Assembly: GCA_039029275.1 (NCBI GenBank)
Contig: JBCCGL010000010.1
Location: forward strand, 61 to 64,060
Direction: 5' to 3'
DNA: 64,000 nt
Source of the DNA: Pseudomonadota bacterium
GTDB taxonomy: Bacteria; Pseudomonadota; Gammaproteobacteria; JBCCGL01
The notes beneath the pieces are model-generated. The model was given only the letters and a program-made list of their open reading frames with translations. It searched no databases and was not told the DNA's origin. Both the position numbers and the translations under genes were made by a program. Positions 3,019 through 63,283 of the stretch are shown here, in pieces; the stretch's first letter is position 1; each line of letters begins with the position of its first letter.

Positions 3019-3027
3019 GGCGCGCCT

Positions 3028-5585: not shown

Positions 5586-5609
5586 CGCCAAAGCGGCTTG
5601 AACTATTTG

Positions 5610-6341: not shown

Positions 6342-6491
6342 TGGTAGACACGAAAATCGTTAAAATGGGAGGCGATTGATCGCGCATTCGCCGTGACGAT
6401 CGTTATCTATATAGATTGGAAAACCGATATTTGCGACATGGAAAATGTCACTCGGTTGAAACAGTAAAACCTGTTTCTGAATTCCGCCTGC

Positions 6492-9167: not shown

Positions 9168-9223
9168 GAATGGCTCCCGATTAATAATTCGGTAAACAAA
9201 TGATAGAAGATGACAACCCAGAC

Positions 9224-40007: not shown

Positions 40008-40458
40008 TTCCAGAAACAGTTAACGTATAACTAAAACGCTAGTGAGTTCTCACAGCAATTGAAAACGCATAACGACGGACGGCCAATATCATCATGATGG
40101 GCGGAAACGCTGTTGAAACAATACAATAGCGTGAATAAATTTTAAAAATTTAGACACCTCTTTATGAGAAATCAGAAAATCTTATCGACGAAAAACCGCT
40201 CAACTTTCAAAAACTAAAAATCAAAAGTCGTTCAAATTTAGTGCCAGTAAAAGTGCTCAACCACTAGTCGAGTTGTTACACCCTCTCATCCTGCAAACCA
40301 CTGCATCAGAAGCAGAATTTAACGATGCTAATTCAAAGACGCGACGAGTCGCTAACACGTTAGGCTTTTGAACAGTTGATTCGCGCGAACTTGCCTAGGC
40401 ACGTAATTCGCTACACTAACACCATAGAGTCACCCATGGCACACGAGATCACTCAAAA

Positions 40459-41712: not shown

Positions 41713-41807
41713 TCATGCGTAGCCGGTCAAGCCAAACTATGAATGCACCCGCACCTGCGCTGCGTCAGTTGCACCGTCTCGAGCGCAACGATGCATTGCG
41801 GTCACGA

Positions 41808-44267: not shown

Positions 44268-44315
44268 GCTTATGTTTTTACTGAAAATGGTTATTAGCTC
44301 TGTGGGATTTATCCG

Positions 44316-46885: not shown

Positions 46886-46895
46886 CACATTCGAC

Positions 46896-47735: not shown

Positions 47736-49051
47736 GCGGTGTAAATATCCAATTCGAGTCGCTTGATAAACAGCTCGACGTAGCGCTCAGACTCTGCTGG
47801 ATCAAATCCAAACTCCCGCTCAAGCACATCGGCCAGTTCACGATAAGTCATGTCCTGATTGACATGTGACAGGATATGAAAAAACGTCGCGTTTTCAATT
47901 TTGTAGCGTTCAAATTCTGGCGTGTAGCGTATTTTCTGCGGCGATGACGAGCGCGGAAATGCTTTCTCAGTCAACGCCGACGCAATCTGATTTGGTTGTT
48001 TTGCATCAATAAACAAAACGCTTTCCATCCGTTGTTGCGAATCCAGTGGACTCTGCAAATAGGGAATACTGGTTTGCTGCAAACTACAATCTGAAAATCG
48101 CAGCGTAAACTCCGCCTCGACCTCCTCACGGCACAGCTGGTGATGCTCTAGTGATTTGTGCACGTTTGCCGGTCCGAAGAACAACAATTTTCCCTCATCG
48201 CCGATCATTCGGCTTGCGCAATCCAGTGCGTCGCCAAAGGGAAAATCGACAACGTCCAGAAACCAGGGTGCAATCACAACGTCGAATGCCTTTTCTCGAA
48301 AAGGCATATTCGGAAACTCACACAGTATTTGTGCGTGGTTACAACTCGACAATTTTTCCGCTTTTATCTCCCAGGTTTGCGATGCGTGGTTCAAGTCGCG
48401 GGGGTATACGCTGTAATCAGTGAGCTTGAACGACTTACCTCTAAATATTTTATCTGCGCCTAGTGCGAGCAGCGGGTTGTGCTCTGCGGATATTACGCTC
48501 GTCGATGTAAAGTGATTGGCGAGGTGGTAACTCAGACCTCCCGCCCCCGATCCAAGTATCAAAATAGATTCAGTTTTTGCGTCAATATGTTCAACGCAAT
48601 ATTCAACGTAACGTGTGAGCTCCTCGTGTCCCCAACACCAATCGCGAAAGAACAATTGAAAGTAGCTGTAAATCTGCTGAGTTGAAGGCAAAGCAAGTGC
48701 GTCCTGGGGTTTCTTAAACTCGTTTAAAGTCGATTTCATCCAGGTCAAATTCTTACTGCGCGCTTGATGCTGCTGGCTCAGGCGTTTATTGGCGAGCGAA
48801 CCGCCCGAGTCATTCATTCGGATTTGTAAGTGCTTGAGGTAAAGCGCCTCGCGCTCAAAATAGCTGTGAACCTTTCGAGCCCACTCCAAGCGTGCATTTT
48901 CAGGATCGGCGAACAGCCATGGGATCCCATCGAGCATTGGATAACTGACGCTGCCTGCCGCGAACCCGTCTCCGCTCTTGCGAAGCAGATCGCCGGAGCC
49001 GGGGCATACGAGATTGGCAGCTAGAAAATCATCGATCGTCATACAATTCAA
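47732..49051 (-). CDS. SAM-dependent methyltransferase with N-terminal Trm112-like zinc-ribbon domain
   Basis: 'LVCPGSGDLL' Trm112p-like. Class-I MTase Gly-rich motif 'ILILGSGAGG'. 439 aa. Confidence 0.65.
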   Translation of the reverse strand: MNCMTIDDFLAANLVCPGSGDLLRKSGDGFAAGSVSYPMLDGIPWLFADPENARLEWARKVHSYFEREALYLKHLQIRMNDSGGSLANKRLSQQHQARSKNLTWMKSTLNEFKKPQDALALPSTQQIYSYFQLFFRDWCWGHEELTRYVEYCVEHIDAKTESILILGSGAGGLSYHLANHFTSTSVISAEHNPLLALGADKIFRGKSFKLTDYSVYPRDLNHASQTWEIKAEKLSSCNHAQILCEFPNMPFREKAFDVVIAPWFLDVVDFPFGDALDCASRMIGDEGKLLFFGPANVHKSLEHHQLCREEVEAEFTLRFSDCSLQQTSIPYLQSPLDSQQRMESVLFIDAKQPNQIASALTEKAFPRSSSPQKIRYTPEFERYKIENATFFHILSHVNQDMTYRELADVLEREFGFDPAESERYVELFIKRLELDIYTA

Positions 49052-49201: not shown

Positions 49202-50551
49202 TTACAAATACCAATCAAGTTCTTGCGCACTCATCGCACTCATAAACTCATCAAATTCACCCTGCTTGACCCGCGTGTAGGCATCGATGTAATCGTCGGA
49301 TAAATATTGAGGGAGAACCTGCGCCGATCGCATGATTTCAATTGCTTGCCATATTATCAGTGGTAGCGATTCATCTACCTCTGCGCCCGCGTTGCCACTG
49401 GCCATGTCAGTCGGCTCAAGTCGATTGGATATCCCGTGGTGAATGCCCGCCAGTACCGCAGCGACTACAAGATATGGGTTTGCCTCTGCACCGGCAACGC
49501 GGTGTTCGATGCGTCGATTCTTGTTGTCGTAGTCAACAACCCGAAACGCCATCGAGCGATTGTCGATACCCCAATCCCGCGTAACCGGTACGAATTGATC
49601 CGGCTCAAAACGCCGAAAGGCATTCAGGTTTGGCGCAAAAACCAGCATGGCTTCGTGCAGCGTTTGCTGCATGCCGGCGACTGCGTAGCGAATCATGTCA
49701 TCCGACGTCGGGTTGGCGGGATCAAATACAGGCCTGCCCTGGTCATCCCGCAAGCTCACGTGAATGTGCTGCCCACTGCCGGATTCACCTGCAAACGGTT
49801 TGGATAGAAAGGTTGCATCAAAACCCGCCGCGCGGCATGCGCCTTTAATCGCGCGCCGTTGCATCGCCGCCCAGTCGCAGGCACGCAATATGTCATTGGT
49901 GTGCTTCAGGTTCAGCTCAAACTGACCAACACCGTATTCACTTGAAGCAACCGTTGCTGGAATATTTTGCGCATCGCAGGCCGCGTGAATGCGCGCAAAG
50001 ACGTCACTGAATTCTTCCAGTACATCGAACCCGTACACCTGCCCTGCACTACTGCGGCGCCCGCTAAATGGCGACACTGGGAGTTGCGGCAATCCGCTGT
50101 CATCGCGCTCGCGATCAAGCAGATAGAATTCCAATTCGATCGCGACGACGGGTGTCAGTTCAAGCGCCGTGAACTTATCTAATACCGTTTGCAAAATTAC
50201 ACGCGGCTCAAACCAAACGGGATCGCCGGTTTCAGGACGCTGCAGCTGCATTAAACACTGCGCTCGCGGTTCGTCAATCCAGGGTACCGGAACCAGCGTG
50301 CCTGGTACCGGCTTCATGATCGCGTCTGGATCACCGTCGGAAAAACCAAGACCAAGAGGATCGCTGGAATTTCCGCGTGCGTCGAGTAAATAGGCTGATG
50401 CACAAATCCGTGAGCCGTCTTCGTATAGTTTGGGCAAATCAGTCACAGGAAAACGCTTGCCCATTGCGTTGCCGCACAAATCAATAATGAACGTATCGAC
50501 TTGTTTGGTATCAGGAAAGCGTTTGAGAAATTCAGTTACTTCGTCGCGCAT
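49202..50551 (-). CDS. glutamine-synthetase-family gamma-glutamyl-amine ligase (PuuA/GmaS-like)
   Basis: N-terminus 'LKRFPDTKQVDTFIIDLCGNAMGKRFPV' parallels PuuA 'LERYPNTQYVDVLLTDLNGCFRGKRIPV'. GS catalytic domain. 449 aa. Confidence 0.8.
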   Translation of the reverse strand: MRDEVTEFLKRFPDTKQVDTFIIDLCGNAMGKRFPVTDLPKLYEDGSRICASAYLLDARGNSSDPLGLGFSDGDPDAIMKPVPGTLVPVPWIDEPRAQCLMQLQRPETGDPVWFEPRVILQTVLDKFTALELTPVVAIELEFYLLDRERDDSGLPQLPVSPFSGRRSSAGQVYGFDVLEEFSDVFARIHAACDAQNIPATVASSEYGVGQFELNLKHTNDILRACDWAAMQRRAIKGACRAAGFDATFLSKPFAGESGSGQHIHVSLRDDQGRPVFDPANPTSDDMIRYAVAGMQQTLHEAMLVFAPNLNAFRRFEPDQFVPVTRDWGIDNRSMAFRVVDYDNKNRRIEHRVAGAEANPYLVVAAVLAGIHHGISNRLEPTDMASGNAGAEVDESLPLIIWQAIEIMRSAQVLPQYLSDDYIDAYTRVKQGEFDEFMSAMSAQELDWYL

Positions 50552-50658
50552 ACAAAACTCACCTTGCCTATCGACGTGCTGACACTTTGAAAGTGTTTTA
50601 CCATCACGCTATTGTTGGGTCTTTTGAATTTTTCCGGTCGAATTTATCGCAGCAGGCT

Positions 50659-51750
50659 ATGAAAGTACACAAACAACCTATGCGTACCATTTGGCTGGAT
50701 GAAACTGGATGGCAGATCAATATCGTTGATCAAACGCGCCTTCCGCACGAATACTACGTTACGGCTCTCAGCACAGTTGATGACGCTGCAGCTGCCATCG
50801 AAACGATGCAGGTACGCGGTGCTCCGCTTATCGGCGCCACCGCCGCATACGGTATGGCGCTGGCGATGCGCGAAGATACCAGCGATGAAGCCCTGAATAA
50901 TTCAATAGAACTATTGAGCGCGACTCGCCCGACGGCAGTCAATCTGCGATGGGCGCTCGATCAAATGCACGATGAGTTGCAATGTGTGGCACAAGAAAAA
51001 CGCGCTTCGCGTGCGTACGAAAAAGCTGCTCAACTCTGCGCGCGCGACATTGAATGCAACCACTCGATCGCACAGCACGGCCTGCAGTTAATTCGCGCAA
51101 TTGCAGAATCAAAAAGCACCGATGACCCGGTCAATATCCTCACACATTGCAATGCGGGTTGGTTGGCAACCGTGGGTTGGGGAACAGCATTGGCACCAAT
51201 CTATGCAGCGCGTGAAGACGGAATCGATTGTCACGTCTGGGTAGATGAAACGCGCCCGCGCAATCAGGGTGCGCAACTCACGACCTGGGAACTTGCCAAC
51301 GCCGATGTACCCCACACGGTCATTGCTGATAACGCAGGTGGCCATTTGATGCAAACTGGTCAGGTCGATTGCTGCATAGTTGGCACCGACAGAACCGCTG
51401 CCAATGGCGATGTATGCAACAAGATTGGAACATACCTGAAAGCACTGGCTGCGCACGCTAATGACATACCGTTTTATGTTGCATTGCCCGGCAGTACGAT
51501 TGACTGGCAGGCGCGCGATGCGACCGATATCCCCATTGAGCATCGCAGTGAGACCGAAGTCACGCATTTGTGGGGCAAGGACAACCGCGACCGCTTGATC
51601 AACATACAATTAACACCGGACAATACACGCGCATGCAATCCTGCATTTGATGTGACACCTGCGACAATGGTTACGGCTTTAATCACCGAACGCGGTGTTT
51701 GTAATGCCTCTGCAGACGGATTGCGATCACTCTTTTCGGAGACACAATGA
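50659..51750 (+). CDS. mtnA: S-methyl-5-thioribose-1-phosphate isomerase
   Basis: eIF-2B/MtnA family 'RGAPLIGATAAYG', 'GTDRTAANGD'. Start at internal ATG (MKVHKQ). Confidence 0.85.
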   Translation: MKVHKQPMRTIWLDETGWQINIVDQTRLPHEYYVTALSTVDDAAAAIETMQVRGAPLIGATAAYGMALAMREDTSDEALNNSIELLSATRPTAVNLRWALDQMHDELQCVAQEKRASRAYEKAAQLCARDIECNHSIAQHGLQLIRAIAESKSTDDPVNILTHCNAGWLATVGWGTALAPIYAAREDGIDCHVWVDETRPRNQGAQLTTWELANADVPHTVIADNAGGHLMQTGQVDCCIVGTDRTAANGDVCNKIGTYLKALAAHANDIPFYVALPGSTIDWQARDATDIPIEHRSETEVTHLWGKDNRDRLINIQLTPDNTRACNPAFDVTPATMVTALITERGVCNASADGLRSLFSETQ

Positions 51751-52391
51751 ACAACAAAACCGACAAGCGCACCCTGCTGATAAAAAAAGCGCAGTCGATG
51801 AACGGCGCGGGATTGGGGCAAGGCTCGGCGGGCAATCTCAGCGTTCGCGATGGCGACGGCTTTCTGGTCACTCCGGCAGCGATACCATATGACCAATACC
51901 AGATCGACGATATTGTGTATATGACTATGGACGGTGAGTACTCGAGTGATCGCCCACCGTCAAGTGAATGGCGCTTTCATCGAGATATTTATCGAGAGCG
52001 CGAAGACATCAACGCCGTCGTGCACGCGCACTCGCCTGCATGCACCGCGCTTGCCTGCCTGGACCGATCTATTCCTGCGTTCCACTACATGGTGGCTGTC
52101 GCAGGTGGCGACAACATTCGATGCGCACCATACGCGACATTCGGCACGCAGGAGTTGTCAGACCATGTGATCCACGCGCTGCAAGACCGCTACGCTTGCC
52201 TGCTATCCAACCACGGTATGGTGTGCGTTGCGGAAAACCTCACCCGCGCGTTTAGCCTCGCGGTTGAAGTAGAGGAATTGGCCGAGATTTATTGCCAGAC
52301 CCTGCAAGTCGGTCAACCAAAAATTTTGTCACGCGCGCAAATTGCCGAAGTACTGGAGAAATTCGTGGTGCACAAAAAGCTTCGCGATTGA
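51747..52391 (+). CDS. mtnB: methylthioribulose-1-phosphate dehydratase / class-II aldolase-adducin family
   Basis: 214 aa, 'NAVVHAHSP' class-II aldolase His motif. 4-nt overlap with mtnA. Confidence 0.75.
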   Translation: MNNKTDKRTLLIKKAQSMNGAGLGQGSAGNLSVRDGDGFLVTPAAIPYDQYQIDDIVYMTMDGEYSSDRPPSSEWRFHRDIYREREDINAVVHAHSPACTALACLDRSIPAFHYMVAVAGGDNIRCAPYATFGTQELSDHVIHALQDRYACLLSNHGMVCVAENLTRAFSLAVEVEELAEIYCQTLQVGQPKILSRAQIAEVLEKFVVHKKLRD

Positions 52392-52439: not shown

Positions 52440-53192
52440 CTACAAAATCTGACTCAGAAATTCCTGCGTTCGCGGATCTTTGGCTTCGGTGAAAAATGTA
52501 TCGGGGTGGCCGTGCTCCACAATCACACCGCGATCGGTAAAGTAAATATGATCCGCAACCTCACGGGCGAAGCCCATCTCGTGGGTCACTAGAATACAGG
52601 TCATACCGGACTGGGCGAGGTCTTTAATCGCGACCAGAACCTCCTTTACCGTTTCGGGATCGAGCGCTGCAGTCACTTCATCGAAAAGCATCACATCAGG
52701 ATTCATCGCCAGCGATCTTGCGATTGCAACGCGTTGCTGTTGCCCACCCGAAAGCTCGCCGGGGTAATTGTTTTCCTTGCCCTCGAGGTTTACACGTTTT
52801 ATCAGTGCACGTGCGCGGTCTTCGACATCAGACGGAGTTTGCTTGAGCACTTTGATCGGCGCCATCATGACATTTTGCAATGCCGTTTTGTGCGGAAATA
52901 AATTGTATTGCTGAAACACCATTCCGACTTTCTTACGCAGTTCAAGCTTATTGAGCTTAGGATCGTGAACTTCCTGACCCTGAACCTTTATCGATCCGGA
53001 ATTGATGTCGTTAAGCGCGTTAACGCATCGAATTAGCGTGGACTTGCCTGACCCGGACGGGCCTATGATGCAAATCACTTCGCCCTTCATCACATCCAGC
53101 GAGATGCCTTTGAGAACTTCCAGTGATCCGAATGATTTGTGGACGTCTTGTATCGAGACGATCGGCTGGTCTTCTGTCCAACTCATGGCCAT
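52440..53192 (-). CDS. polar amino acid ABC transporter ATP-binding protein
   Basis: Walker A 'GPSGSGKST', signature 'LSGGQQQRVAIAR', Walker B 'MLFDEVTAALD'. Confidence 0.9.
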   Translation of the reverse strand: MAMSWTEDQPIVSIQDVHKSFGSLEVLKGISLDVMKGEVICIIGPSGSGKSTLIRCVNALNDINSGSIKVQGQEVHDPKLNKLELRKKVGMVFQQYNLFPHKTALQNVMMAPIKVLKQTPSDVEDRARALIKRVNLEGKENNYPGELSGGQQQRVAIARSLAMNPDVMLFDEVTAALDPETVKEVLVAIKDLAQSGMTCILVTHEMGFAREVADHIYFTDRGVIVEHGHPDTFFTEAKDPRTQEFLSQIL

Positions 53193-53199
53193 ATCCTGT

Positions 53200-54096
53200 T
53201 TACAGTTTTACCGCGTAACGGCGCTCGAGAGCGATGGTTATGCGTGCGATGGGGTAGCAGTATGCGAAAAATACGAGCAGCGCGAACGAGTAAAACGGGA
53301 CAAGCAGCTCGGGCTTGTTGTTTTCGGCTTCAATCGCCTGACGACTGAGCGTAATCATTTCTTCGACACCGAGCAGCGTACACATCGGTGTCGCCATCGT
53401 CAGAATCGCGTACCAGTTCATCCACGGCGGAATCATGCGCTTAAAACACTGCGGAAGAATCACTTGCCACAGCGTTTGTCGACGAGTGTATGCAAGTGAC
53501 TCGGCCGCCTCCCACTGACCCGAAGCCACCGACTGCACGCCGCCACGCACAACTTCTGAGACATTCGCCATGATCGGCAGTGACAGGCCAAATACTGCTT
53601 TCATCCAATCCGGGATCGAAATGATATAGCCACCGATGACGATTTCGAACGGAAACGCCAACAGTACGATAAACAATACAACCAACCACGGCGAGTTGCG
53701 AAAAAGCTGCGTCATAATCTTCGCCGGTGTGCGAACGATTGCGAGGGGTGAAATCTGCGCCAGCCCGAGCATCACACCCGCGACCGTGCCGATCAACATT
53801 GTCAGCACCGAGATAATCACGTTAAACAAAAAGCCGCTGGTCAATAAAAAGGGCATCCATTTAAATAATGCCTGTACCGCCTGACCGTAGGTGTAACCTG
53901 TCGATGCCAACGCCGACATCGGCCACAGAAAAATAATCGCAAGTAACAGCAAAATCGCACCGGGGTGGATTGATGCAATCCAGCGCGCGAAGCCAACCGG
54001 ATCACTTCCGATAAAACCTCGACTGAAGTACGGTTTTAAAACCGGCAAATCGGTTTTTTGGACTGTATTGATACCGGGGATGTTTGACTTTGCCAC
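53200..54096 (-). CDS. amino acid ABC transporter permease
   Basis: Polytopic. EAA-like loop. HisM/HisQ-type permease. Confidence 0.85.
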   Translation of the reverse strand: MAKSNIPGINTVQKTDLPVLKPYFSRGFIGSDPVGFARWIASIHPGAILLLLAIIFLWPMSALASTGYTYGQAVQALFKWMPFLLTSGFLFNVIISVLTMLIGTVAGVMLGLAQISPLAIVRTPAKIMTQLFRNSPWLVVLFIVLLAFPFEIVIGGYIISIPDWMKAVFGLSLPIMANVSEVVRGGVQSVASGQWEAAESLAYTRRQTLWQVILPQCFKRMIPPWMNWYAILTMATPMCTLLGVEEMITLSRQAIEAENNKPELLVPFYSFALLVFFAYCYPIARITIALERRYAVKL

Positions 54097-54099
54097 GCC

Positions 54100-54858
54100 T
54101 TACTCCCCGTACCCGGGAATGCGCATCGCGCGTTCCCACTTGTGCATTCCAAAAACCAGCGTGCACACCAAAACCAGAAACAGCACAAACAGCAATAGCA
54201 TCGTTGGGTACTGTGCGCTTGGGTAATCGTTCCAGATTCCCACGCATTGATAGAGCAGCTCGGGCACAGCAATCGCAATCGCCTGCGTTGTTGTTTTAAC
54301 CAAATTGACCAGATTGCTATTCAGCGCAGGCAAAGACACGCGAAACGCCAGCGGTAACACCACCTCAACATAGGTTTGAAAACGCGAAAAACCGAGTGCG
54401 CTTGCCGCTTCCTGTGTCGACTCAGGCACCGCTTCGATACCTGCGCGAAATATCTCAACGTTAAATGCGCCTGCAAAAAACGATAGCGAAATAATGGCCC
54501 AACCGACATTTGAAATAATCGGTGTCTCGGTCCAGCCGTCTGGTCCGACAATAGTGGGCGTGAATTGACCAAGTGCAAAGTAGAAAAACAAAAGCTGCAC
54601 AAACGGTGGGGTGTTTCGAAAAAACTGGATGTAGCCCTGCACAATCATGCGCAGCCACTTGATTGGAGACGCTTGCAACCAGGCTCCAACGACCCCAACA
54701 ATCACCGACAACATGACACAGGCAATCGACAGAACGATGGTGGTCTGCAAACCGTCCACAACCCGGTTCCACTGAAACTCATCGTAAAAAAATATAAAGT
54801 TCCAACGTGGATATTCCTCCGCCATCTGACGAAAGAATTCTGTAAACGCTTCTAACAC
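54100..54858 (-). CDS. amino acid ABC transporter permease
   Basis: Polytopic HisQ/HisM-type permease. Tightly linked to neighbours. Confidence 0.85.
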   Translation of the reverse strand: MLEAFTEFFRQMAEEYPRWNFIFFYDEFQWNRVVDGLQTTIVLSIACVMLSVIVGVVGAWLQASPIKWLRMIVQGYIQFFRNTPPFVQLLFFYFALGQFTPTIVGPDGWTETPIISNVGWAIISLSFFAGAFNVEIFRAGIEAVPESTQEAASALGFSRFQTYVEVVLPLAFRVSLPALNSNLVNLVKTTTQAIAIAVPELLYQCVGIWNDYPSAQYPTMLLLFVLFLVLVCTLVFGMHKWERAMRIPGYGE

Positions 54859-54945
54859 AACGAGATAATTCGATTGTTGATTTAATTAACCGCAGCGCCG
54901 GAGAGTGGGAGATTCTCCCCGACGCCGCGGTTAACGGAGGAACGC

Positions 54946-55779
54946 TTACTCAGCCAACCAGTCAGCGTAGCGTTTATTCAAGTCGGAGAGATAGGCGGTT
55001 GGTTTGATACCCCACTTCTTCTCCCACTCAATCAGCTGACCGGACTCATGCCAGTTGTAGGTCATGCCCGACATAAACTGTCCGAAGATGCAGTCTTTTT
55101 CCGCAACCGGAACCGCGAGTCCCCAGGGGTTGTCGTCTTCAGAGTTGAGCGGCATTTCGAAGTCATTGTAATCGCCCGATGACAGGTCCGAGCCGATAGA
55201 AGAATCATCGTAAACCCAAGCAACGCATTTTTTATCGCGCAGTGCTTGCTTGGCTTCAGCGTTACCCGTGAAAGCGACGATCTCAACACCATAGCGCTCG
55301 GTCACGATTTTGTTGTAAAACGCGCCCTGCTTTCCGCAAACCGGTTTACCGCGAAGGTCTTCCCAGTTTGTGAAGCCAAGTGCTTTGGGTGCCATGATGT
55401 TGGTGCCCGAAGTGTAATACGGTGGTTTGGGAATCCCGACAATTTTGCGACGGTCGGCACGATCCGACATCGTCGCAATAAACATATCGGTCTTGCCCTG
55501 CTCAAGAAACTGCATGCGGTTCGACGATTGCACCGCGACCAGTTCGAGCTCTACTCCCATCGTATCGGCGACCGCTTTCGCCATGTCGATTTCCATGCCA
55601 ACGATACTGCCGTCGCTGTCGCGAAAACCCCATGGTTTGTAGTCAGCTTTCACGCCAACCACGATCTTGCCGCGGGACATAACTTTGTTCCACACATCAT
55701 TGGTGCATTGAGCGGCGAAACTGGTGCTCGTCGCCAGCATCGCTGCCGATGCAACTGCTGCTGTCAGAAATGTTTTCAC
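54946..55779 (-). CDS. periplasmic amino-acid-binding protein (PBP3 family)
   Basis: Signal peptide. SBP_bac_3 pattern 'GKIVVGVKADYKPWGF...GMEIDMAKAVA'. Confidence 0.85.
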   Translation of the reverse strand: MKTFLTAAVASAAMLATSTSFAAQCTNDVWNKVMSRGKIVVGVKADYKPWGFRDSDGSIVGMEIDMAKAVADTMGVELELVAVQSSNRMQFLEQGKTDMFIATMSDRADRRKIVGIPKPPYYTSGTNIMAPKALGFTNWEDLRGKPVCGKQGAFYNKIVTERYGVEIVAFTGNAEAKQALRDKKCVAWVYDDSSIGSDLSSGDYNDFEMPLNSEDDNPWGLAVPVAEKDCIFGQFMSGMTYNWHESGQLIEWEKKWGIKPTAYLSDLNKRYADWLAE

Positions 55780-55891
55780 TGTTTTACTCCTCCAAATTAA
55801 AGAAACCGCGAACGAATAAATGTCCGGATAGCTTGAGAACCCTATGCAGTGCCACCGCAGTTTGTATCAGGTGTAAGGCTGCATCTGAAAT

Positions 55892-55933
55892 ATAACATTT
55901 GTTATTTTTTGAATAAAATGTAACATACGTTAT
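55892..55933. promoter_or_regulatory. two related 14-bp palindromes (ATAACAttTGTTAT and GTAACAtaCGTTAT) in the divergent ABC/rpiR promoter region; candidate RpiR operator
   Basis: Perfect 6-bp inverted repeat at 55892-55905. A related imperfect copy at 55920-55933. AT-rich divergent intergenic region. Confidence 0.3.
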
Positions 55934-55967
55934 CTTTCAAAGCTAATCTAACGCTAGTCACGACCGA

Positions 55968-56819
55968 ATGCAACACGTTATCGATCAACTACTTGAAGCG
56001 TTGCCGAATCTGACGCCAAAGCTTAAGCAGGCCGCAAAGGTCATACTGGATCGACCCAACGCAGTCGCGACTACGTCAATGCGGGAGTTGGCCAGACAGG
56101 CAGGCGTGACCGCGCCAACCATGATTCGTCTTGCTAACCATCTAGGTTTTGATGATTACCGCCAGCTCAAAGAAGTGTTTCTGCAGGCTGTGACTAACTA
56201 CAACTTTGAGCAACGCGCGAATCAACTGCAACGCGCCTCAAAGACAGCCGGTGAGGCCGCTATTATTCAAGAGCTGGCTGACGCTGGTCATCGAAACATC
56301 AATCATTTTTATCAAAACCTCGATTTGGAGGCGATCTGTCGCGCCGCTGATCTCATCGTTAACGCCGAGACCGTCTACGTTGTTGCCGCCAGCGCGCCGC
56401 ACTGGATGGGTGCCTACATGCAGTATGTGGGGAAAATGGCAATTCCCTATCTGCGCGTTCCACGCACCAGCGGCGATAGCCTTATTGAGGGGCTTATACC
56501 GATCAGCAGTAATGATGTTGTGCTGGCAATGACATACAACCCCTACGCTACCCAAACCATGGAAGCGGTCGAATTCGCACTTGAACGCGGAGCGTCTTTT
56601 ATTTATTTGACTGACAGCATCGCGGCTCCGCTCGCCGACAAGGCGACCGTATTGATCCAGCAGTCAACCGATAGCCCGCAGTTTTTCCCATCGATGGTGC
56701 CCGTGGTCGCGGCGATTGAAACCCTGCTCGCCGTTGTTGTGGCGCGCAGCGGACCCCAGGCAATTAGCGCAATTGCCGAGTACGCAGAAATTCGCAAACA
56801 ACGCTATTTTTCGCTATGA
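55968..56819 (+). CDS. MurR/RpiR family transcriptional regulator (HTH_6 + SIS)
   Basis: N-terminal HTH 'TSMRELARQAGVTAPTMIRLANHLGF'. C-terminal SIS domain. Confidence 0.85.
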   Translation: MQHVIDQLLEALPNLTPKLKQAAKVILDRPNAVATTSMRELARQAGVTAPTMIRLANHLGFDDYRQLKEVFLQAVTNYNFEQRANQLQRASKTAGEAAIIQELADAGHRNINHFYQNLDLEAICRAADLIVNAETVYVVAASAPHWMGAYMQYVGKMAIPYLRVPRTSGDSLIEGLIPISSNDVVLAMTYNPYATQTMEAVEFALERGASFIYLTDSIAAPLADKATVLIQQSTDSPQFFPSMVPVVAAIETLLAVVVARSGPQAISAIAEYAEIRKQRYFSL

Positions 56820-58204
56820 CTGAACGTACAGAAATCGATAGCCTCGGCGCTGTCGGTGTACCCGCCAACGCGCTATACGGAAGCAACACCGTACGCGCCC
56901 TTGAAAACTTCCCGATCACCGATCGTACGCTCGGAAACGAGACCGCACTGGTGACGTCAATCGCGCAGATAAAAAAGGCGTGCGCGATGACAAACGCGGA
57001 CCTTGGTGCCGTCAACCAAGCTGCGGCCCAGGCGATTGCTCACGCCTGCGATGAGATGATTGAGGGCGCATTGAACGACAGTCTGATCGTGCCGGTGCTG
57101 GAAGGTTCGGGTGGTACCTCGACCAATATGAATGTGAATGAAGTACTCGCCAATCGAGCCTTGCAGATCCTGGGCGAACCACTGGGCAACTACAGCGAAG
57201 TGCACCCCAACGATCACGTCAACTGCGGGCAATCGACCAATGATGTAGTGCCAAGTGCAATCAAGCTGGCGTGCCATGCGCTGACACAAAGCGCCGTGGC
57301 AAGCGCCCGAAAACTCGCCAAAGCCCTTGAAAAAAAATCTGCTGAATTTGCAGCGGTGTATCGGCTGGGCAGAACCTGTTTGCAGGACGCGCAACCGATG
57401 ACACTGGGCCAGGCGTTTGAGGGCTACGCGGCTGTTGTCGCCCGTGCGGCAGATCGAATCGAAGCACAGGGCCAGCATTTGTTAACGCTGCCACTGGGCG
57501 GTACCGCAGTTGGAACCGGGCTCGGCTCGGTTGATGGATTCCGCGACGCGGCAATCACCCGGCTAAGCGCCATAACCGATCTCACAATCACGCCTTGCGC
57601 CAGTCGCTTTGACGGAATGCAAAACCTCGACGAGTTGCAGCGCTTGTCTGCAGAGCTGGAAACCGCGACAGGAGCCGTCGCAAAAATAGCCAAAGATTTG
57701 ATATTGCTGTCATCCGGACCCAACGGAGGATTGGGTGAAATCACCCTGCCGTCGGTGCAAGCCGGATCATCGATCATGCCGGGTAAAGTCAACCCGGTGC
57801 TGCCTATGTCGGCGGTGCAACTCGCACAAATCGTTCATGGCAATCACGCCTGCATCGTGATGGCGTGTCAGGACGGTATGTTGGAAATCAATCACTACGA
57901 GAGTGCAATCGCATCGCGCCTGTTCGATTCATTGCAGCGAACAGCGGAGATTGTTGACGTTTTTTCCACACGTTGCGTTGAAGGCATTGAAGCGAACACT
58001 GAGCGATCACTGAACCACTTGCTGGACTCGTTCGCACTGGCCACCACTCTGGTGCCCAGGTTAGGTTACAGCGCGGTCAGTCAGTTGGTGAAAGACAGTG
58101 TCAAAGCCAAGCGCCCATTTCTCGAGCTGGCCGAAGCACAAAACCTGATTGCGCGGGACGAGATCATGGCGATCATCAAATCCAGCGTTGAGCCGGACGA
58201 CTGA
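56816..58204 (+). CDS. fumarase/aspartase-family C-N or C-O lyase (aspartate ammonia-lyase-like)
   Basis: Signature 'GSSIMPGKVNPV'. 462 aa. Class-II fumarase/aspartase fold. Confidence 0.8.
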   Translation: MTERTEIDSLGAVGVPANALYGSNTVRALENFPITDRTLGNETALVTSIAQIKKACAMTNADLGAVNQAAAQAIAHACDEMIEGALNDSLIVPVLEGSGGTSTNMNVNEVLANRALQILGEPLGNYSEVHPNDHVNCGQSTNDVVPSAIKLACHALTQSAVASARKLAKALEKKSAEFAAVYRLGRTCLQDAQPMTLGQAFEGYAAVVARAADRIEAQGQHLLTLPLGGTAVGTGLGSVDGFRDAAITRLSAITDLTITPCASRFDGMQNLDELQRLSAELETATGAVAKIAKDLILLSSGPNGGLGEITLPSVQAGSSIMPGKVNPVLPMSAVQLAQIVHGNHACIVMACQDGMLEINHYESAIASRLFDSLQRTAEIVDVFSTRCVEGIEANTERSLNHLLDSFALATTLVPRLGYSAVSQLVKDSVKAKRPFLELAEAQNLIARDEIMAIIKSSVEPDD

Positions 58205-58211
58205 GCACGGC

Positions 58212-59594
58212 ATGGCAAGCGAGCAATGCGTCGTCGAACGACTCGCCGAATTTGTCCAATCGCACAACAGTAGAAAAACTCCTGACCCAGTCATCGCCGA
58301 GGCAAAGCGCTGCATACTCGATACCGCGGGCGTCACTGTTGCCGGGCAGATGAGCGATGTGGCCAGTGCGACGCATGATTACGCGATTGCACATCACGGT
58401 AGCGGAAAGTCGCGCGTTATTGGCAAGCGAACCACATGCAGCCCAGTCGCCGCGGCTCTGGTCAATGGGACGGCGGCGCATGCGTACGATTTCGACGACA
58501 CCAGCTACACCGGCATCATGCACGGGTCCGCGGTGGTACTGCCTGCGGCCCTGGCGCTGGCCGAACATCACGGCGTGCGTGGCGAAGTGCTCCTGGACGC
58601 TTTCATCGCGGGTGTTGAGATTGAATACGCGCTGGCCGAATTGTTTACCCATCACGTCTACTTCAAAGGTTGGTGGACGACCGGCGTATACGGCACGATT
58701 GGCGCCGCAGCGGCGTGTGCGAAAGTATGTGACCTCAATACGGAACAAACGGAGAACGCTGTCGCGATGGCGTCGGTCATGACGACCGGAATGAAGGCGT
58801 CATTCGGTACAGACAGCAAACCGCTGGGCGTCGGCATGGCTGCCAGCCGCGGGATCGAGTGTGCGCTACTCGCAGCTCGCGGATTGACCGGCCCCAATCG
58901 AGCGATGGAGGACGATCGCGGATTGTTCAAATTGCTAAACGATGATCAACAACATACTGATTGCAAGCTCCATCTCGGGGAACGCTGGCGATTGATTGAT
59001 CCCGGCATCTTATTCAAGGCATATCCGGTTTGCTCAGCCGCACAAGCAGGAGCAGAGCTCACAGCGACGTTAATACGACGACACAACATCAACGCGGAGA
59101 CGATCGCGCAAGTAATTTGCGATGTGCCAAAACTCGTCGCGATCAGTCTTGTTTACGAGCACCCGGCAAGCGTGCGCGAAGCCCAATTTTCGATGCAGTT
59201 TGCCGTGGCCTGCGCTGCAATCCACGGCACGATTGGTCTACCCCACCTCCAGCAATCGACGCTCGATGACCCGCATGTGCGGCAACTGATGCAGCGCATA
59301 CAGATGCAGGTGCCGGATTCGTTGCTGAACGATCCAACCGTGCCATCGCGATGCCCCGAAGGCGCCGGAGTCACAATTAAAACTACGGATGGGAATCAGT
59401 ACAGTGATTTTCTCGAACGCCCAACCGGTATGCCGGGAAACCCGGTATCGACGGAGGCACTTACCGACAAATTTGCCAATTGTCTCGCACACGCTGGCGT
59501 CGAAAACCACGCGGCGTCGGAATTGAGTGAACGCTTACTCGGCTTGGATACGCAGCCAAACTGCGCGGACCTGTTTGACCTTTTGAAATCATGA
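58212..59594 (+). CDS. MmgE/PrpD family protein (2-methylcitrate dehydratase / epimerase family)
   Basis: About 460 aa from 'MASEQCVVERL'. MmgE/PrpD N- and C-domain pattern. Confidence 0.8.
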   Translation: MASEQCVVERLAEFVQSHNSRKTPDPVIAEAKRCILDTAGVTVAGQMSDVASATHDYAIAHHGSGKSRVIGKRTTCSPVAAALVNGTAAHAYDFDDTSYTGIMHGSAVVLPAALALAEHHGVRGEVLLDAFIAGVEIEYALAELFTHHVYFKGWWTTGVYGTIGAAAACAKVCDLNTEQTENAVAMASVMTTGMKASFGTDSKPLGVGMAASRGIECALLAARGLTGPNRAMEDDRGLFKLLNDDQQHTDCKLHLGERWRLIDPGILFKAYPVCSAAQAGAELTATLIRRHNINAETIAQVICDVPKLVAISLVYEHPASVREAQFSMQFAVACAAIHGTIGLPHLQQSTLDDPHVRQLMQRIQMQVPDSLLNDPTVPSRCPEGAGVTIKTTDGNQYSDFLERPTGMPGNPVSTEALTDKFANCLAHAGVENHAASELSERLLGLDTQPNCADLFDLLKS

Positions 59595-61981
59595 ACAAAT
59601 TGACAACAAACTCGCTTCCAATCCATGCATCCGTCGTCGTGATTGGCGGCGGTGTTATGGGCTGTTCAACGCTCTACCATTTGGCGAAAGCCGGCGTGCG
59701 CGACGCAATCTTGATCGAACGAAACAAGCTTACGTCCGGGACGACGTGGCATTCCGCCGCCCAGGTTCGCGCGCTGCGATCGACGCGCAACCTGACCGAT
59801 CTGATCCGCTACTCCGTATCGCTCTACAGTTCGCTGGAAGAGGAAACCGGTCAGTCCACCGGCTGGATCAACAAAGGCTCGCTGTCGATAGCCACCAACC
59901 AGGCGCGACTCACGCACATCCGCAGACAGGAATCCCTCGCGCATTTGTTTGGCGTCGATGCAAATTCCATTTCGGTCGAGGAAGCAAAAGAACGTTGGCC
60001 ATTGATGAATGCTGAAGACGTTATCGGCGCCGTATGGTCACCCGATGACGGACGTGTGAGTCCATCGGATTTGTGCGCGGCATTGGTCAAGGGTGCACGC
60101 TCGCGCGGTGCGAAGATTTTTGAAGACACGGGCGTGATTGGCATTCGCACGCAAGGCGGAAAAGTCTGCGGTCTGGAAACCACGGCGGGAGAAATTCAAT
60201 GCGACGCAATCGCGCTGTGCACCGGGTTGTGGAGCCGGGAGAATGCGGCGATGGCCGGCGCCGATGTGCCGCTTTACCCGTGTGAGCATTTCTACCTGCT
60301 AACCAAAGCAGTGCCGGGCGCCGAGGGAAATTTGCCTACCTTATCCGACCACGACAGTCATCTATACATTCGCGATGACTCCGGCGGCTTGCTGGTCGGC
60401 TGCTTCGAACCAATTGGCAAAGCGATATCGCCGCAAGCGATCGGAACCGATTCCGCGTTCACCTTACTGCCTGAAGATTGGGAACACTTCGAGCCTATGA
60501 TGGAAAACGCATTGCATCGGCTTCCTGCGCTTGCCAATGCAGAAGTTCGCATGCTCTTGAACGGCCCGGAGTGCTTTACCCCGGACAGTTCGTTTTTACT
60601 CGGTGAAACCGCAGAAACGCGCGGACTGTTTCTCGGCTGCGGCATGAACTCGGTCGGCGTCGCCACCGGCGGCGGTGCCGGAATGGCGCTCGCGCACTGC
60701 ATCGTTCACGGGCACACGCCAAGCGACTTGAGCGAAGCAGATCCAAAGCGATTTCCGAACTGTTGGAACTCCGCAAAGGCGCTTACCGAACGTGCGCCAC
60801 AAGTGTTGGGTGAACACTACGCCATTCACTTTCCCGGTTATCAATGGTCGACCGTGCGCAATCTTCGTCACACACCTTTGCACAATAAATGGATACAACA
60901 CCGCGCTCACTTCGGACAGTTCTTCGGCTGGGAAAGACCGCTGTTTTTTAACAAACAAGCGGAGCCTAAACTGACGTTTAACCAGCCGGATTGGTTTGAT
61001 CAGGTTGGTGCAGAAGTTACGTGCGCGCATGAGTCCGCCGCTGTTTTTGATCTTTCGACGTTCGGCAAAATTCGTGTAACAGGAAAAGACGCGGAAACAT
61101 TTTTAAATCGCGTTTGCGCGAACGACATGACGCGAACACCGGGAAGAGCGATCTACACCGGCATGCTCAACGCGCGTGGGGGCTTTGAAAGCGATCTCAC
61201 CGCTCTTCGGCTTGCAGATGATGATTACCGGCTTTACGTCGGCACCGGTGCAATCAAACGCGACATGGCATGGCTCAAACGAAATTTACAGCCTGACGAA
61301 AGTGTCGCCCTCATTGATGAAACAGAGGACTATGCAGTCCTTGGATTGATGGGTCCCGACTCACCAGATTTAGTCGAAAAATTGGACGCCGGGGAATTAT
61401 TGAATATCGGTTTTTTTCAACACGCTGAGGTGGACATAGCGGGCATCGCGGTTCGCGCGGCGCGTCTTTCGTATGTTGGCGAAGAAGGCTGGGAGTTAAC
61501 CTGCAAATCAAATGAGGCAGAGTCTCTGTTTGACCATCTTTTGCAATTCGGTGCGCAACCAGCGGGCATCTTTGCACAGACATCCATGCGTATTGAAAAA
61601 CGATTTCTGGCTTACGGTCACGATCTCGATACCGATATCAATCCAATTCAGGCGGGATTGGATTTTGCCGTCGATTGGAACTCTGACTTTATCGGACGTG
61701 ACGCTCTTGAGCGTGCACGCCAAAATGGCGCAACGAATGAAGTATTCAATATTATTCTCGACGACGCTGACACCAACCCTCTCGGCAATGAGCCTGTTTA
61801 CCTGACGGATCGAATCATTGGTAAAACCAGCGCTGCGGCTTACGGGTATCGCATTCAACAACCTGTCGCAATCGCTCAGATCAAGCCTGAGTTTGTTTGT
61901 GACGCACTAAAAAGCGATGCAGTCGAGATCGACATTGCGGGCGAGCGCTTTCACGGTAAGATAGTGAAAAAAGCCTTTTGA
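59591..61981 (+). CDS. dimethylglycine/sarcosine dehydrogenase-like flavoprotein (FAD DAO domain + GcvT aminomethyltransferase domain)
   Basis: 'VVVIGGGVMGCSTLYHLA' FAD fold. C-terminal GcvT-like folate-binding domain. 796 aa. Confidence 0.85.
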   Translation: MNKLTTNSLPIHASVVVIGGGVMGCSTLYHLAKAGVRDAILIERNKLTSGTTWHSAAQVRALRSTRNLTDLIRYSVSLYSSLEEETGQSTGWINKGSLSIATNQARLTHIRRQESLAHLFGVDANSISVEEAKERWPLMNAEDVIGAVWSPDDGRVSPSDLCAALVKGARSRGAKIFEDTGVIGIRTQGGKVCGLETTAGEIQCDAIALCTGLWSRENAAMAGADVPLYPCEHFYLLTKAVPGAEGNLPTLSDHDSHLYIRDDSGGLLVGCFEPIGKAISPQAIGTDSAFTLLPEDWEHFEPMMENALHRLPALANAEVRMLLNGPECFTPDSSFLLGETAETRGLFLGCGMNSVGVATGGGAGMALAHCIVHGHTPSDLSEADPKRFPNCWNSAKALTERAPQVLGEHYAIHFPGYQWSTVRNLRHTPLHNKWIQHRAHFGQFFGWERPLFFNKQAEPKLTFNQPDWFDQVGAEVTCAHESAAVFDLSTFGKIRVTGKDAETFLNRVCANDMTRTPGRAIYTGMLNARGGFESDLTALRLADDDYRLYVGTGAIKRDMAWLKRNLQPDESVALIDETEDYAVLGLMGPDSPDLVEKLDAGELLNIGFFQHAEVDIAGIAVRAARLSYVGEEGWELTCKSNEAESLFDHLLQFGAQPAGIFAQTSMRIEKRFLAYGHDLDTDINPIQAGLDFAVDWNSDFIGRDALERARQNGATNEVFNIILDDADTNPLGNEPVYLTDRIIGKTSAAAYGYRIQQPVAIAQIKPEFVCDALKSDAVEIDIAGERFHGKIVKKAF

Positions 61982-62009
61982 TCTGCACCGTTTAGGATTT
62001 TGTTTTTGA

Positions 62010-62786
62010 ATGAACGTCACTATTTGCCAAATTGATCCTCGCGAAGGTTTTTTAGAACCCTGCATTGAAAAACTCACTGATCACGTTCATCACGAAAAAA
62101 CTGATTTTCTATTACTGCCTGAGATGTGCTTTTCGGGTTGGCTTGCAGCCGATCAAAATCCAGACCCAACTCGTTGGTTGCAGGCAGTGGACGATCATGC
62201 GCGCCACATCGCAAACCTTAATGATTTGGCGGCGGAGGCAGTTATCGGTACGCGCCCAATTGTGAATGACTCCGGGAGCAGGCGAAACCAGGCCTATGTC
62301 TGGTCCAAAGAATCTGGAAAAGCGCGTGGTTTTCACGAGAAGTATTATCTCCCCGACGAAGAGGGGTACTGGGAACACACCTGGTATGAACGCGGCTTGA
62401 AAGAGTTCGACACAACGTTGATCAACGATGTGCGTGTCGGTGTTCAAATCTGCACCGAAATGTGGTTTTTTGAATGGGCGCGACACTACGCTAAAGCGAG
62501 GATCGATTTACTCTGTGTACCACGCGCAACACCCCACGGCTCTACAGAAAAGTGGCTTGCAGGCGGACAAGCAGCGGCTGTGTGCGCAGGCGCCTATTGT
62601 CTCTCGTCAAATTTGTGGTGCCCATCAGGAGATAAAGCAAACTGCGGGGGACTTTCGTGGGTGATTGATCCTGAGGGAAATGTATTGGCAACAACAGATA
62701 CGGATAATCCATTCAGGACTGTAGAAATCGATTTGGAATTTGCGCGATTGAGTAAATCAACCTACCCCCGTTATGTACCGGAGTAA
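62010..62786 (+). CDS. carbon-nitrogen hydrolase (nitrilase superfamily)
   Basis: Glu-Lys-Cys triad context 'LLLPEM', 'CTEMWF'. 258 aa. Confidence 0.8.
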   Translation: MNVTICQIDPREGFLEPCIEKLTDHVHHEKTDFLLLPEMCFSGWLAADQNPDPTRWLQAVDDHARHIANLNDLAAEAVIGTRPIVNDSGSRRNQAYVWSKESGKARGFHEKYYLPDEEGYWEHTWYERGLKEFDTTLINDVRVGVQICTEMWFFEWARHYAKARIDLLCVPRATPHGSTEKWLAGGQAAAVCAGAYCLSSNLWCPSGDKANCGGLSWVIDPEGNVLATTDTDNPFRTVEIDLEFARLSKSTYPRYVPE

Positions 62787-62833: not shown

Positions 62834-63283
62834 TTAGTTGTTTTGTTGCAAAAGTATTTGATAGACGCTGTCTGAAATTTCGAACGACACCGGTCGCGTT
62901 TTCATATCACGCGAGTTCATTATTTCCAGCGTTCGGTCATTCTTGAATTGCAGGATCATTTTTAAACGCCCGCTTTCCAGACCATGCTTATAAATAACAA
63001 TATCAAGTTGAGCGGGGTTTTGTGTGGCGTCCAAAATCCACAGAACGCGGCCACCAACCAAATTGCTCGCGCTTAAGCGCGGCAAACCTTCAAACAGCAC
63101 CTCTGCCGATTCATCTTCGTTGAAGATCATGGTGACGGCATCACCATCGGAATCTTGGCCTCCCCATTTACCAACAATGTTTAATATTGCTGTACTTGAT
63201 TGGGCATTCCCCGGCGCGACAGTCGCTGGACAAACGCACATTGCTATTAGGGCTGTTAAAATGTAGCGTCTTAACATTTTCAT
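62834..63283 (-). CDS. hypothetical secreted/lipoprotein
   Basis: Signal peptide 'LTALIAMCVCPATVA'. No recognised domain. Confidence 0.4.
   Translation of the reverse strand: MKMLRRYILTALIAMCVCPATVAPGNAQSSTAILNIVGKWGGQDSDGDAVTMIFNEDESAEVLFEGLPRLSASNLVGGRVLWILDATQNPAQLDIVIYKHGLESGRLKMILQFKNDRTLEIMNSRDMKTRPVSFEISDSVYQILLQQNN

Follow-up and report, generated by a model that had tools for sequence, protein, structure and literature searches.

A recurrent gene cluster joining an MmgE/PrpD-like protein, an aspartase-like lyase and a folate-linked demethylase: a tentative pathway for N-methylated aspartates

The locus and its genes

This study concerns a stretch of 64,000 nucleotides (nt) of contig JBCCGL010000010.1 from a gammaproteobacterium (GenBank assembly GCA_039029275.1), referred to here as the window, and a cluster of nine genes at positions 52440 to 62786 within it. 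Domains in the proteins of the window were called with Pfam and NCBIfam, and protein sequences were searched against the Protein Data Bank (PDB). All nine genes were found at the coordinates in Table 1, and each has a strong domain match (Pfam, NCBIfam). Four minus-strand genes encode an importer and are divergent from five plus-strand genes, which encode an RpiR-family regulator, a C-N lyase, an MmgE/PrpD-like protein (PrpD-like below), a flavoenzyme resembling dimethylglycine dehydrogenase (DMGDH), and a C-N hydrolase. The initial annotation had named these same genes; all of them are present, and their domains were confirmed.

Table 1. Genes of the cluster and the candidate operator, in window coordinates
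Feature	Position	Strand	Supporting match
ATP-binding cassette (ABC) ATPase, polar amino acid (PAAT) type	52440-53192	-	ABC_tran 3e-36
ABC permease 2	53200-54096	-	BPD_transp_1
ABC permease 1	54100-54858	-	BPD_transp_1 1e-21
Periplasmic substrate-binding protein	54946-55779	-	SBP_bac_3 1e-23
Candidate operator, 28-nt direct repeat	55888-55943		Repeat search
RpiR/MurR-family regulator	55968-56819	+	HTH_6 + SIS
Aspartase/fumarase-superfamily C-N lyase, Cys-type	56816-58204	+	Lyase_1 6.5e-73
MmgE/PrpD-like protein, Trp-type	58212-59594 (open reading frame from 58149)	+	N domain 1e-62, C domain 1e-28
DMGDH-like flavoenzyme	59591-61981	+	DAO, FAO_M, GCV_T, GCV_T_C
Nitrilase-superfamily C-N hydrolase	62010-62786	+	CN_hydrolase 4e-21

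The genes are closely packed. The RpiR and lyase genes overlap by 4 nt, and the stop of the PrpD-like gene overlaps the start of the DMGDH-like gene by the same length; the likely true start of the PrpD-like gene is the ATG at 58212, 7 nt past the lyase stop. The C-N hydrolase gene begins 28 nt after the DMGDH-like stop. The cluster had initially been called an island, a term that we have dropped: the GC content of its genes (0.50-0.57) lies within the window range of 0.46-0.59, no foreign-island signature was seen in their base composition against that of the window, and the window has no tRNA genes. There were no riboswitch or other Rfam matches in or near the cluster, and a search of plasmid DNA with the entire region as the query gave zero matches.

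For comparison, an alignment of PrpD-like proteins was scanned over one genome per species, which gave 80 loci; with the loci gathered otherwise, the total was 90, and the counts below refer to these related loci (numbered with the prefix L). The eight core genes, from the importer to the DMGDH-like gene, form a real, tightly packed operon system that recurs in many marine and soil bacteria.

Subfamily placement and active sites

The PrpD-like protein matched MmgE_PrpD_N with 211.7 bits and MmgE_PrpD_C with 100.4 bits (gathering cutoff, 32.1). In the PDB, it matched the Bacillus subtilis 'IRG1' protein at 2e-51, the iminodisuccinate (IDS) epimerase 2HP0 at 4e-46, cis-aconitate decarboxylase (CAD) at about 1e-38, and the 2-methylcitrate dehydratase 5MUX at 1e-4; the comparison between IDS epimerase and methylcitrate dehydratase that had been proposed as a check thus fell on the IDS side. 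A 2-methylcitrate dehydratase was also rejected by the NCBIfam models TIGR02330 (34.9 bits; cutoff, 458) and NF006943 (47.4 bits; cutoff, 575). No prp genes (prpB/prpC context) were found in the window, and the catalytic columns of Escherichia coli PrpD, which read RDGFLKAK, read HDHYWKGK in the PrpD-like protein. Roles in propionate/methylcitrate and itaconate metabolism were rejected on the NCBIfam and PDB scores and the literature. On these scores, the protein belongs to the IDS-epimerase/IRG1 branch and not to the methylcitrate dehydratases.

Characterised MmgE/PrpD enzymes all act on a C4 1,4-dicarboxylate via (de)protonation at C2, and the epimerases among them have an extra Tyr; the family also holds dehydratases and decarboxylases, and most of its members are unassigned (PMC12290011). 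The proposed bases of IDS epimerase are His99 and Tyr145, and mammalian CAD is without Tyr145 (PMC7347537). In a HMMER alignment, H90, D93, H104, Y150, K203, and K269 of the PrpD-like protein correspond to H85, D88, H99, Y145, K198, and K266 of IDS epimerase. Trp155 stands where IDS epimerase has His150, and Gly stands where it has His201. A one-base site of the CAD/IRG1 kind was rejected, as the PrpD-like protein has Tyr150 (none in human CAD) and has Trp155 where CAD has His159. All 91 relatives collected carry the H-D-H-Y-W-K-K pattern, Trp155 included. Judged by these residues, the protein is a member of a large, distinct subfamily with a two-base epimerase-like site, which we call Trp-type, and it may be an epimerase whose substrate is a substituted succinate or aspartate.

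Two characterised systems are close enough to be compared. In the IDS pathway of Agrobacterium tumefaciens BY6 (2HP0/2HP3), an MmgE/PrpD enzyme with the His/Tyr pair likewise accompanies a C-N lyase that makes fumarate from an N-substituted aspartate, and the carboxylate-binding residues H85, D88, K198, and K266 of the epimerase are kept in the PrpD-like protein. However, IDS epimerase was matched with 161 bits only, two of its His residues are replaced as described above, and the cluster in the window has further parts, namely an RpiR regulator, an importer of the ABC type, and an N-demethylase linked to folate. The analogy between the epimerase and lyase pairing and IDS degradation, drawn in the initial annotation, holds and is strengthened by the His/Tyr bases, the IDS/IRG1 branch, and the recurrent linkage of the genes, with the change of His150 to Trp as a point of difference. 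The (S)-(R)-methylsuccinate isomerase of the pseudomonad itaconate cluster (PMC12290011) is also a two-base His/Tyr epimerase of the MmgE/PrpD family that acts on a C2-substituted succinate, but its neighbours are a CoA-transferase, a hydratase, and a lyase for C5-dicarboxylates, whereas those in the window are for amino-acid transport, N-demethylation, and C-N cleavage.

The lyase (Lyase_1, 246 bits) has the aspartase fold and, like E. coli AspA and Bacillus AspB (1J3U), contains the catalytic SS-loop GSSIMPGKVNP and the T-S-T-N and S-T-N-D motifs. Its best NCBIfam model, NF008909 (an aspartate ammonia-lyase subfamily), gave 499.6 bits against a cutoff of 510; the aspA equivalog TIGR00839 gave 413.9 against 681.2, and the fumC equivalog was also far from reached. 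The references for the lyase were E. coli AspA, AspB, the Brucella 3OCE protein, and E. coli FumC. Compared with them, every member of the clade of the lyase has four changes, in three signatures: GRT-C-LQDA-Q-P instead of GRT[H/Q]LQDA[V/T]P (DAQP for DAVP), GQ-A/L-F instead of GQEF or GQEI (GQAF in the window), and NPVxP-M instead of NPVxPE (NPTQCE in FumC). The Cys in the first signature, present in every member of the clade, is the equivalent of AspB His188, which touches the product amine (PMC11744663).

The identity of the lyase is 35.1% to E. coli AspA and 35.5% to E. coli FumC; it is 35-39% to aspartases, as to FumC. Between true aspartases, it is about 50%. In a neighbour-joining tree, the clade was split from all four references in 195-200 of 200 bootstraps. 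By this tree and these signatures, the lyase is a member of a separate clade, here called Cys-type, and not a canonical aspartase. Thus, the groupings that would have spoken against the initial annotation were not observed: the lyase lies outside the bona fide aspartases, and the PrpD-like protein lies outside a methylcitrate/propionate context. Wild-type AspB is reported to add methylamine to fumarate (PMC7586795, Table 1), so the chemistry of N-methylaspartate is within reach of the lyase fold.

Flavoenzyme, hydrolase and importer

In the flavoenzyme, the DAO, FAO_M, GCV_T, and GCV_T_C domains all scored above the Pfam cutoff, which is the architecture of dimethylglycine/sarcosine dehydrogenases. 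Rat DMGDH (4PAB) matched residues 13-793 at 4e-123. Orthologues with 48-73% identity adjoin PrpD-like genes in 13 loci. The protein is predicted to be an FAD- and tetrahydrofolate-dependent N-demethylase.

The C-N hydrolase, which had been counted as a member of the pathway, has a readable Glu38-Lys111-Cys148 triad. However, no orthologue of it was found in the 90 related loci, where the CN_hydrolases are at most 28% identical to it. Its orthologues (64-72% identity) are abundant 258-residue proteins, encoded in Roseovarius albus and Agarilytica rhodophyticola by solitary genes with unrelated neighbours. Its GC content is 0.49 and its GC at third codon positions (GC3) is 0.475, while the GC3 of the operon is 0.57-0.63. 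The hydrolase is thus probably an unrelated neighbour and not a conserved part of the pathway. As the terminator scan found no terminator between the DMGDH-like and hydrolase genes, read-through into the hydrolase gene is possible. Non-orthologous CN_hydrolases recur near related clusters (L002 and 15 Sox-type loci), which makes an amide or carbamoyl precursor conceivable in some organisms.

In the importer, the nearest NCBIfam models of the ATPase are GlnQ and EhuA, both under the cutoff, and the PDB held no close or informative liganded relative of the binding protein (best match, 6H30 at 2e-21). Both permeases are conserved along with the cluster, and permease 2 was counted in 31 loci; orthologues of the binding protein also adjoin PrpD-like genes in 31 of the 90. 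Between the Gammaproteobacteria and the Alphaproteobacteria, the ATPases that adjoin PrpD-like genes are 80-88% identical and the binding proteins 54-79%, while the PrpD-like proteins are just 41-47% identical. The better conservation of the importer than of the enzymes suggests lateral spread of a substrate-specific transporter.

Recurrence and modularity of the cluster

A SoxA-like or DMGDH-like protein with the folate-binding GCV_T domain is encoded next to the PrpD-like gene in 46 of the 90 loci (37 of 61 when only loci of 15 kb or more are counted), and both are found together in nine. Other neighbours are an RpiR regulator (38 loci), an arginase-family gene (22), a pair of D-hydantoinase-like and carbamoylase-like genes (15), and a Cys-type lyase gene (11). 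The lyase, the PrpD-like protein, a folate-linked N-demethylase, and an ABC importer thus recur together in many genomes, which supports the combination picked out in the initial annotation. PrpD-like clusters are spread over marine, sponge-like, and groundwater metagenome-assembled genomes (MAGs).

In three uncultured Gammaproteobacteria (L001, L002, and L009; 54-87% identity per gene), the ABC genes are divergent from RpiR-lyase-PrpD in the same order as in the window, and the DMGDH-like gene lies on the opposite side of the importer. Its companions there are a second RpiR gene and an aminotransferase gene in L001, a second RpiR gene and a different CN_hydrolase gene in L002, and an aminotransferase gene alone in L009. 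In the window, the two modules are merged in one operon.

Elsewhere, the modules occur in reduced combinations. Two Rhodospirillales MAGs (L094 and L095) have a LysR regulator, a Cys-type lyase, the binding protein, permeases, ATPase, and the PrpD-like protein without a demethylase. Plasmid pW43C of Parasedimentitalea marina has RpiR, SoxBDAG, the PrpD-like protein, the binding protein, permeases, and ATPase without a lyase. Plasmid pCSC3H3 of Thalassospira marina has LysR, folD, ABC genes, a Cys-type lyase, SoxBDAG, and purU without a PrpD-like gene. Plasmid pUSP4 of Aminobacter sp. MSH1 has LysR, ABC genes, and a Cys-type lyase, with neither a demethylase nor a PrpD-like gene. As SoxB and SoxA of Thalassospira and P. 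marina are orthologous (85% and 63% identical, respectively), the same Sox complex is linked to the lyase in one genome and to the PrpD-like protein in the other. The SoxG and PrpD genes overlap in other lineages. As the PrpD-like and DMGDH-like genes overlap in the window as well, the demethylase is not an accidental neighbour.

The D-hydantoinase-like and carbamoylase-like enzymes of the 15 loci are encoded upstream of SoxBDAG-PrpD, an arrangement that fits an intermediate of the N-carbamoyl-N-methyl-aspartate type in the D configuration. A conserved operon in Rariloculaceae and other MAGs (L003, L084, L085, and L086; positions about 1-11400) opens with a three-subunit molybdenum hydroxylase and continues with D-hydantoinase-like, carbamoylase-like CN_hydrolase, SoxBDAG, and PrpD-like genes; COXG is present in L003, L084, and L085, and L086 is without COXG and has a second hydroxylase set downstream. 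Its gene content suggests that this operon converts an N-methylated heterocycle by hydrolysis into an N-methyl amino acid.

Some other PrpD-like loci have different neighbours. SAR116 and other marine Alphaproteobacteria (L032, L035, L037, L053, L058, and L063) have a distant PrpD-like protein with 36% identity and the H-D-H-Y-W-K-K site; its gene directly follows an arginase-family gene, and a second arginase-family gene and another PAAT ABC importer are close by. In L032, L035, and L037, an Fe-alcohol dehydrogenase gene comes after the PrpD-like gene. This linkage suggests a guanidino-substituted substrate in these marine bacteria. On a plasmid of Azospirillum brasilense (L089) and on pOANT01 of Brucella anthropi (L090), the PrpD-like protein (40-42% identity) is LysR-linked, and the neighbours are an ABC importer (PAAT in L090, another ABC type in L089), RidA, and agmatinase-like and ArgE-like deacylase genes; the B. 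anthropi locus is flanked by insertion sequence elements.

The closest relatives (L001, L002, L004, and L009, downstream of the PrpD-like gene) and L039 and L043 encode a 414-aa D-amino-acid-dehydrogenase-like flavoprotein and a short-chain dehydrogenase, a pair that is not in the window. In L002, a 398-aa open reading frame (ORF) without a Pfam match and short-chain-dehydrogenase fragments, possibly an insertion, lie between that pair and the PrpD-like gene. The Hyphomicrobiales loci L023, L039, L043, L045, L048, and L051 have an RpiR-DMGDH-PrpD-SoxBDAG cluster. In L039, L045, L048, and L051, an agmatinase-like gene and/or a PRK08197-type 'threonine synthase' gene (568 bits) lies just past the importer and may belong to the pathway or reflect lineage synteny.

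Regulator and candidate operator

The regulator has an N-terminal HTH_6 domain (35.6 bits) and a C-terminal SIS domain (35.9 bits), both above the Pfam cutoff, and orthologues with 54-74% identity occupy the same position in L001, L002, L006, L009, and L010. The spacer between the binding-protein and RpiR genes is 188 nt long and contains the 28-nt direct repeat, each copy of which holds a TAACA-N3-GTTA palindrome (55892-55905 and 55920-55933). The palindrome is kept in L001, L002, and L009, in whose orthologous spacers the surrounding sequence has diverged. A promoter-like hexamer pair at 55892-55919 overlaps the palindrome repeat; the number of sites in the promoter and terminator scan was no higher than in shuffled sequence. 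The repeat is a reasonable candidate operator, and the gene arrangement and the conserved palindrome together point to RpiR control of both divergent operons. Other lineages carry LysR in place of RpiR (L094, L095, Thalassospira, and Aminobacter).

Proposed pathway and alternative explanations

From these data, we infer the substrate, the order of the steps, the role of each enzyme, and the regulation as follows. The cluster would serve the uptake and catabolism of an N-methylated aspartate-type amino acid with a C4 1,4-dicarboxylate skeleton, N-methyl-D/L-aspartate being the simplest candidate; we place the probability of this reading at about 0.45. The binding protein and the ABC importer would bring the compound in. 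The Trp-type PrpD-like protein would epimerise C2 in the fashion of IDS epimerase, by a two-base mechanism with His104 and Tyr150, making both stereoisomers usable. The DMGDH-like flavoenzyme would take off the N-methyl group and hand it to tetrahydrofolate. The Cys-type lyase would then cut a C-N bond, either in the aspartate so formed or possibly in the N-methyl compound itself, giving fumarate and ammonia or methylamine. RpiR would bind the TAACA-N3-GTTA palindromes and control both divergent operons.

Several observations lead to N-methylaspartate. The presence of folD and purU in the Thalassospira cluster indicates that a one-carbon unit passes from the oxidase to the folate pool, and hence that an N-methyl group is removed. 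The lyase and the MmgE/PrpD protein both need a succinate backbone; with N-demethylation added, N-methylaspartate is the simplest fit. Both N-methyl-L-aspartate and N-methyl-D-aspartate occur in marine bivalves, according to the work of Shibata et al. (2001) as it is cited in PMC12430128, and the need for an epimerase fits the presence of both enantiomers there as well as the D-hydantoinase and carbamoylase partners. The tetrahydrofolate-linked N-demethylase, as the constant partner, favours an N-methyl amino acid over an ethylenediaminedisuccinate (EDDS)/IDS chelator, an opine, or a metallophore. The interpretation in the initial annotation is thus supported in part: the pairing of epimerase and lyase stands, the C-N hydrolase drops out, and the particular candidates (opine, EDDS/IDS-like chelator, and metallophore) are less apt than an N-methylated aspartate.

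The demethylation step has parallels in DMGDH, SoxBDAG, and the N-methylglutamate dehydrogenase MgdABCD, which have the same domain architecture with GCV_T, and folD and purU are present in a related locus; the conversion of homarine through N-methylglutamate to glutamate (PMC13236597) follows an analogous demethylation logic. In contrast to these systems, the orthologue group in the window travels with the PrpD-like protein, the Cys-type lyase, and the PAAT importer, and not with glycine-betaine, creatine, or methylamine genes. Homarine catabolism, whose last stages likewise comprise an N-methyl amino acid and a Sox-like enzyme, was considered for the cluster itself and rejected: the hom operon is without MmgE/PrpD, RpiR, and lyase genes, and its product is N-methylglutamate.

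The following points weigh against an N-methylaspartate pathway. The pathway is put together from family chemistry and gene context, and literature searches (MmgE with sarcosine oxidase; N-methylaspartate with DMGDH) found nothing relevant that links the families. A dedicated divergent lyase has no obvious purpose if the product of demethylation is ordinary L-aspartate, and a methylamine-releasing lyase alongside a demethylase would be partly redundant. The change of His150 to Trp in the PrpD-like protein could mean a different chemistry. RpiR regulators usually sense sugar phosphates. The nine Hyphomicrobiales loci with both a DMGDH-like protein and SoxBDAG suggest an N,N-dimethyl or doubly methylated substrate, and the 22 arginase-family loci, some with RidA or ArgE-like genes, hint at guanidino or acylated substrates for other members of the subfamily. 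From these arginase-family, RidA, and ArgE-like neighbours in other branches, the substrates of the whole Trp-type subfamily may be various N-substituted aspartates.

Four other explanations were considered. The genes may be an ordinary D/L-aspartate operon, with a divergent aspartase and a PrpD-like aspartate racemase, lying beside an unrelated dimethylglycine or sarcosine demethylase. This is in line with the NF008909 score just short of the cutoff, the aspartase-like STND motif and SS-loop, the variability of the AspB His188 position in true aspartases (Gln in E. coli AspA and Brucella 3OCE), and the Aminobacter locus with ABC and lyase genes only. We nevertheless regard it as unlikely: the orthologous Sox complex is tied to the lyase or the PrpD-like protein in different genomes, the clusters contain no glycine-betaine genes, and the lyase clade is equally far from AspA and FumC.

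In another explanation, the compound degraded is an aminopolycarboxylate or an N-(carboxyalkyl)aspartate of the opine kind, for example a metallophore or a chelator resembling IDS or EDDS; the epimerase and lyase would then work as in Agrobacterium, and the flavoenzyme would oxidise a secondary-amine C-N bond. Few characterised proteins are closer to the PrpD-like protein than IDS epimerase, which shares its catalytic His and Tyr, the minimal lyase-ABC-PrpD operons of L094 and L095 need no demethylase, and PAAT binding proteins include opine binders, which were weak matches here. The commonest partner, however, is the GCV_T demethylase, and this, with folD and purU in Thalassospira, indicates removal of N-methyl and not carboxyalkyl cleavage; the His150 of IDS epimerase is replaced by Trp across the whole subfamily; and IDS and EDDS are rare or synthetic, while the cluster is widespread. 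We consider this explanation quite unlikely.

It is decidedly improbable, in our estimate, that the PrpD-like protein is a dehydratase or decarboxylase that converts another substituted succinate (e.g., a 3-hydroxy- or unsaturated aspartate derivative) to an enamine or imine. The MmgE/PrpD family includes both activities, RidA flanks the related PrpD-like genes on the Azospirillum and B. anthropi plasmids, and the His150 of IDS epimerase is replaced by Trp. Against these stand the Tyr of the two-base epimerases, which is invariant here and not present in CAD, the minimal operons of lyase and PrpD genes, which parallel the logic of IDS epimerase and lyase, and the D-hydantoinase-type partners, which make D-to-L conversion necessary. 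Chance juxtaposition of unrelated genes, which does seem to account for the C-N hydrolase, is effectively refuted for the eight core genes by their overlapping start and stop codons, by linkage that recurs across classes, and by the gene order kept at 54-87% identity in L001, L002, and L009.

The proposed N-methylaspartate pathway can be extended into a wider hypothesis, which we hold to be doubtful: a widespread, undescribed pathway for N-methylated aspartates, including the neuroactive N-methyl-D-aspartate of marine animals, in which the Trp-type epimerase and the Cys-type lyase are new subfamilies that combine in a modular way with folate-linked demethylases and a dedicated, horizontally shared importer, and which in some lineages is fed from an N-methylated heterocycle by a molybdenum-hydroxylase/hydantoinase/carbamoylase route. 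If true, it would give a function to a large uncharacterised branch of MmgE/PrpD and to a third branch of the aspartase/fumarase superfamily, now labelled 'aspartate ammonia-lyase' by genome pipelines. It would also provide a route by which marine, host-associated, and soil bacteria draw carbon, nitrogen, and one-carbon units from an N-methylated acidic amino acid. As biocatalysts for N-substituted aspartic acids, both the epimerase and the Cys-type lyases could be of use. The hypothesis is directly testable, as three cultured strains carry sub-modules.

Other genes in the window

The region at 37386-45959 contains large proteins of no clear family. An 873-aa ORF there matches only hydrazine synthase alpha, weakly and over a short stretch (52 bits); the others are a Laminin_G_3 protein of 856 aa and ORFs of 417 and 547 aa without matches. 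Within 46109-47735 (plus strand), an EgtC-like class-II amidotransferase gene scored 205 bits against a cutoff of 218; the end of this ORF overlaps the start of the listed ORF of a quinolinate phosphoribosyltransferase (NadC), and no other ergothioneine genes were seen near it. ORFs of 439 aa (47732-49051, minus strand) and 149 aa (62834-63283, minus strand) had no Pfam or NCBIfam match, and the sole match of the former was a faint one to 'mad2' in PADLOC (2e-6, 25 bits).

Beyond the MtnA and aldolase genes described below, a glutamine-synthetase-like gene (Gln-synt_C) lies at 49202-50551 on the minus strand. It fell far short of every curated cutoff, with 167 bits for type III (cutoff, 470) and 161 bits for gamma-glutamylputrescine synthetase (cutoff, 650). 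A methylamine link through this gene was considered and rejected on the 167 bits against the cutoff of about 469 (type III/GmaS). Next to the cluster, positions 50587-52391 (plus strand) contain a gene for S-methyl-5-thioribose-1-phosphate isomerase (MtnA, 476 bits) that overlaps a class II aldolase gene by 4 nt; the aldolase scored 239 bits as fuculose-phosphate aldolase and only 62 bits as MtnB dehydratase. By these scores, the pair looks like a 'dihydroxyacetone phosphate (DHAP) shunt' for the salvage of 5'-methylthioadenosine or 5-deoxyribose and not like classical methionine salvage.

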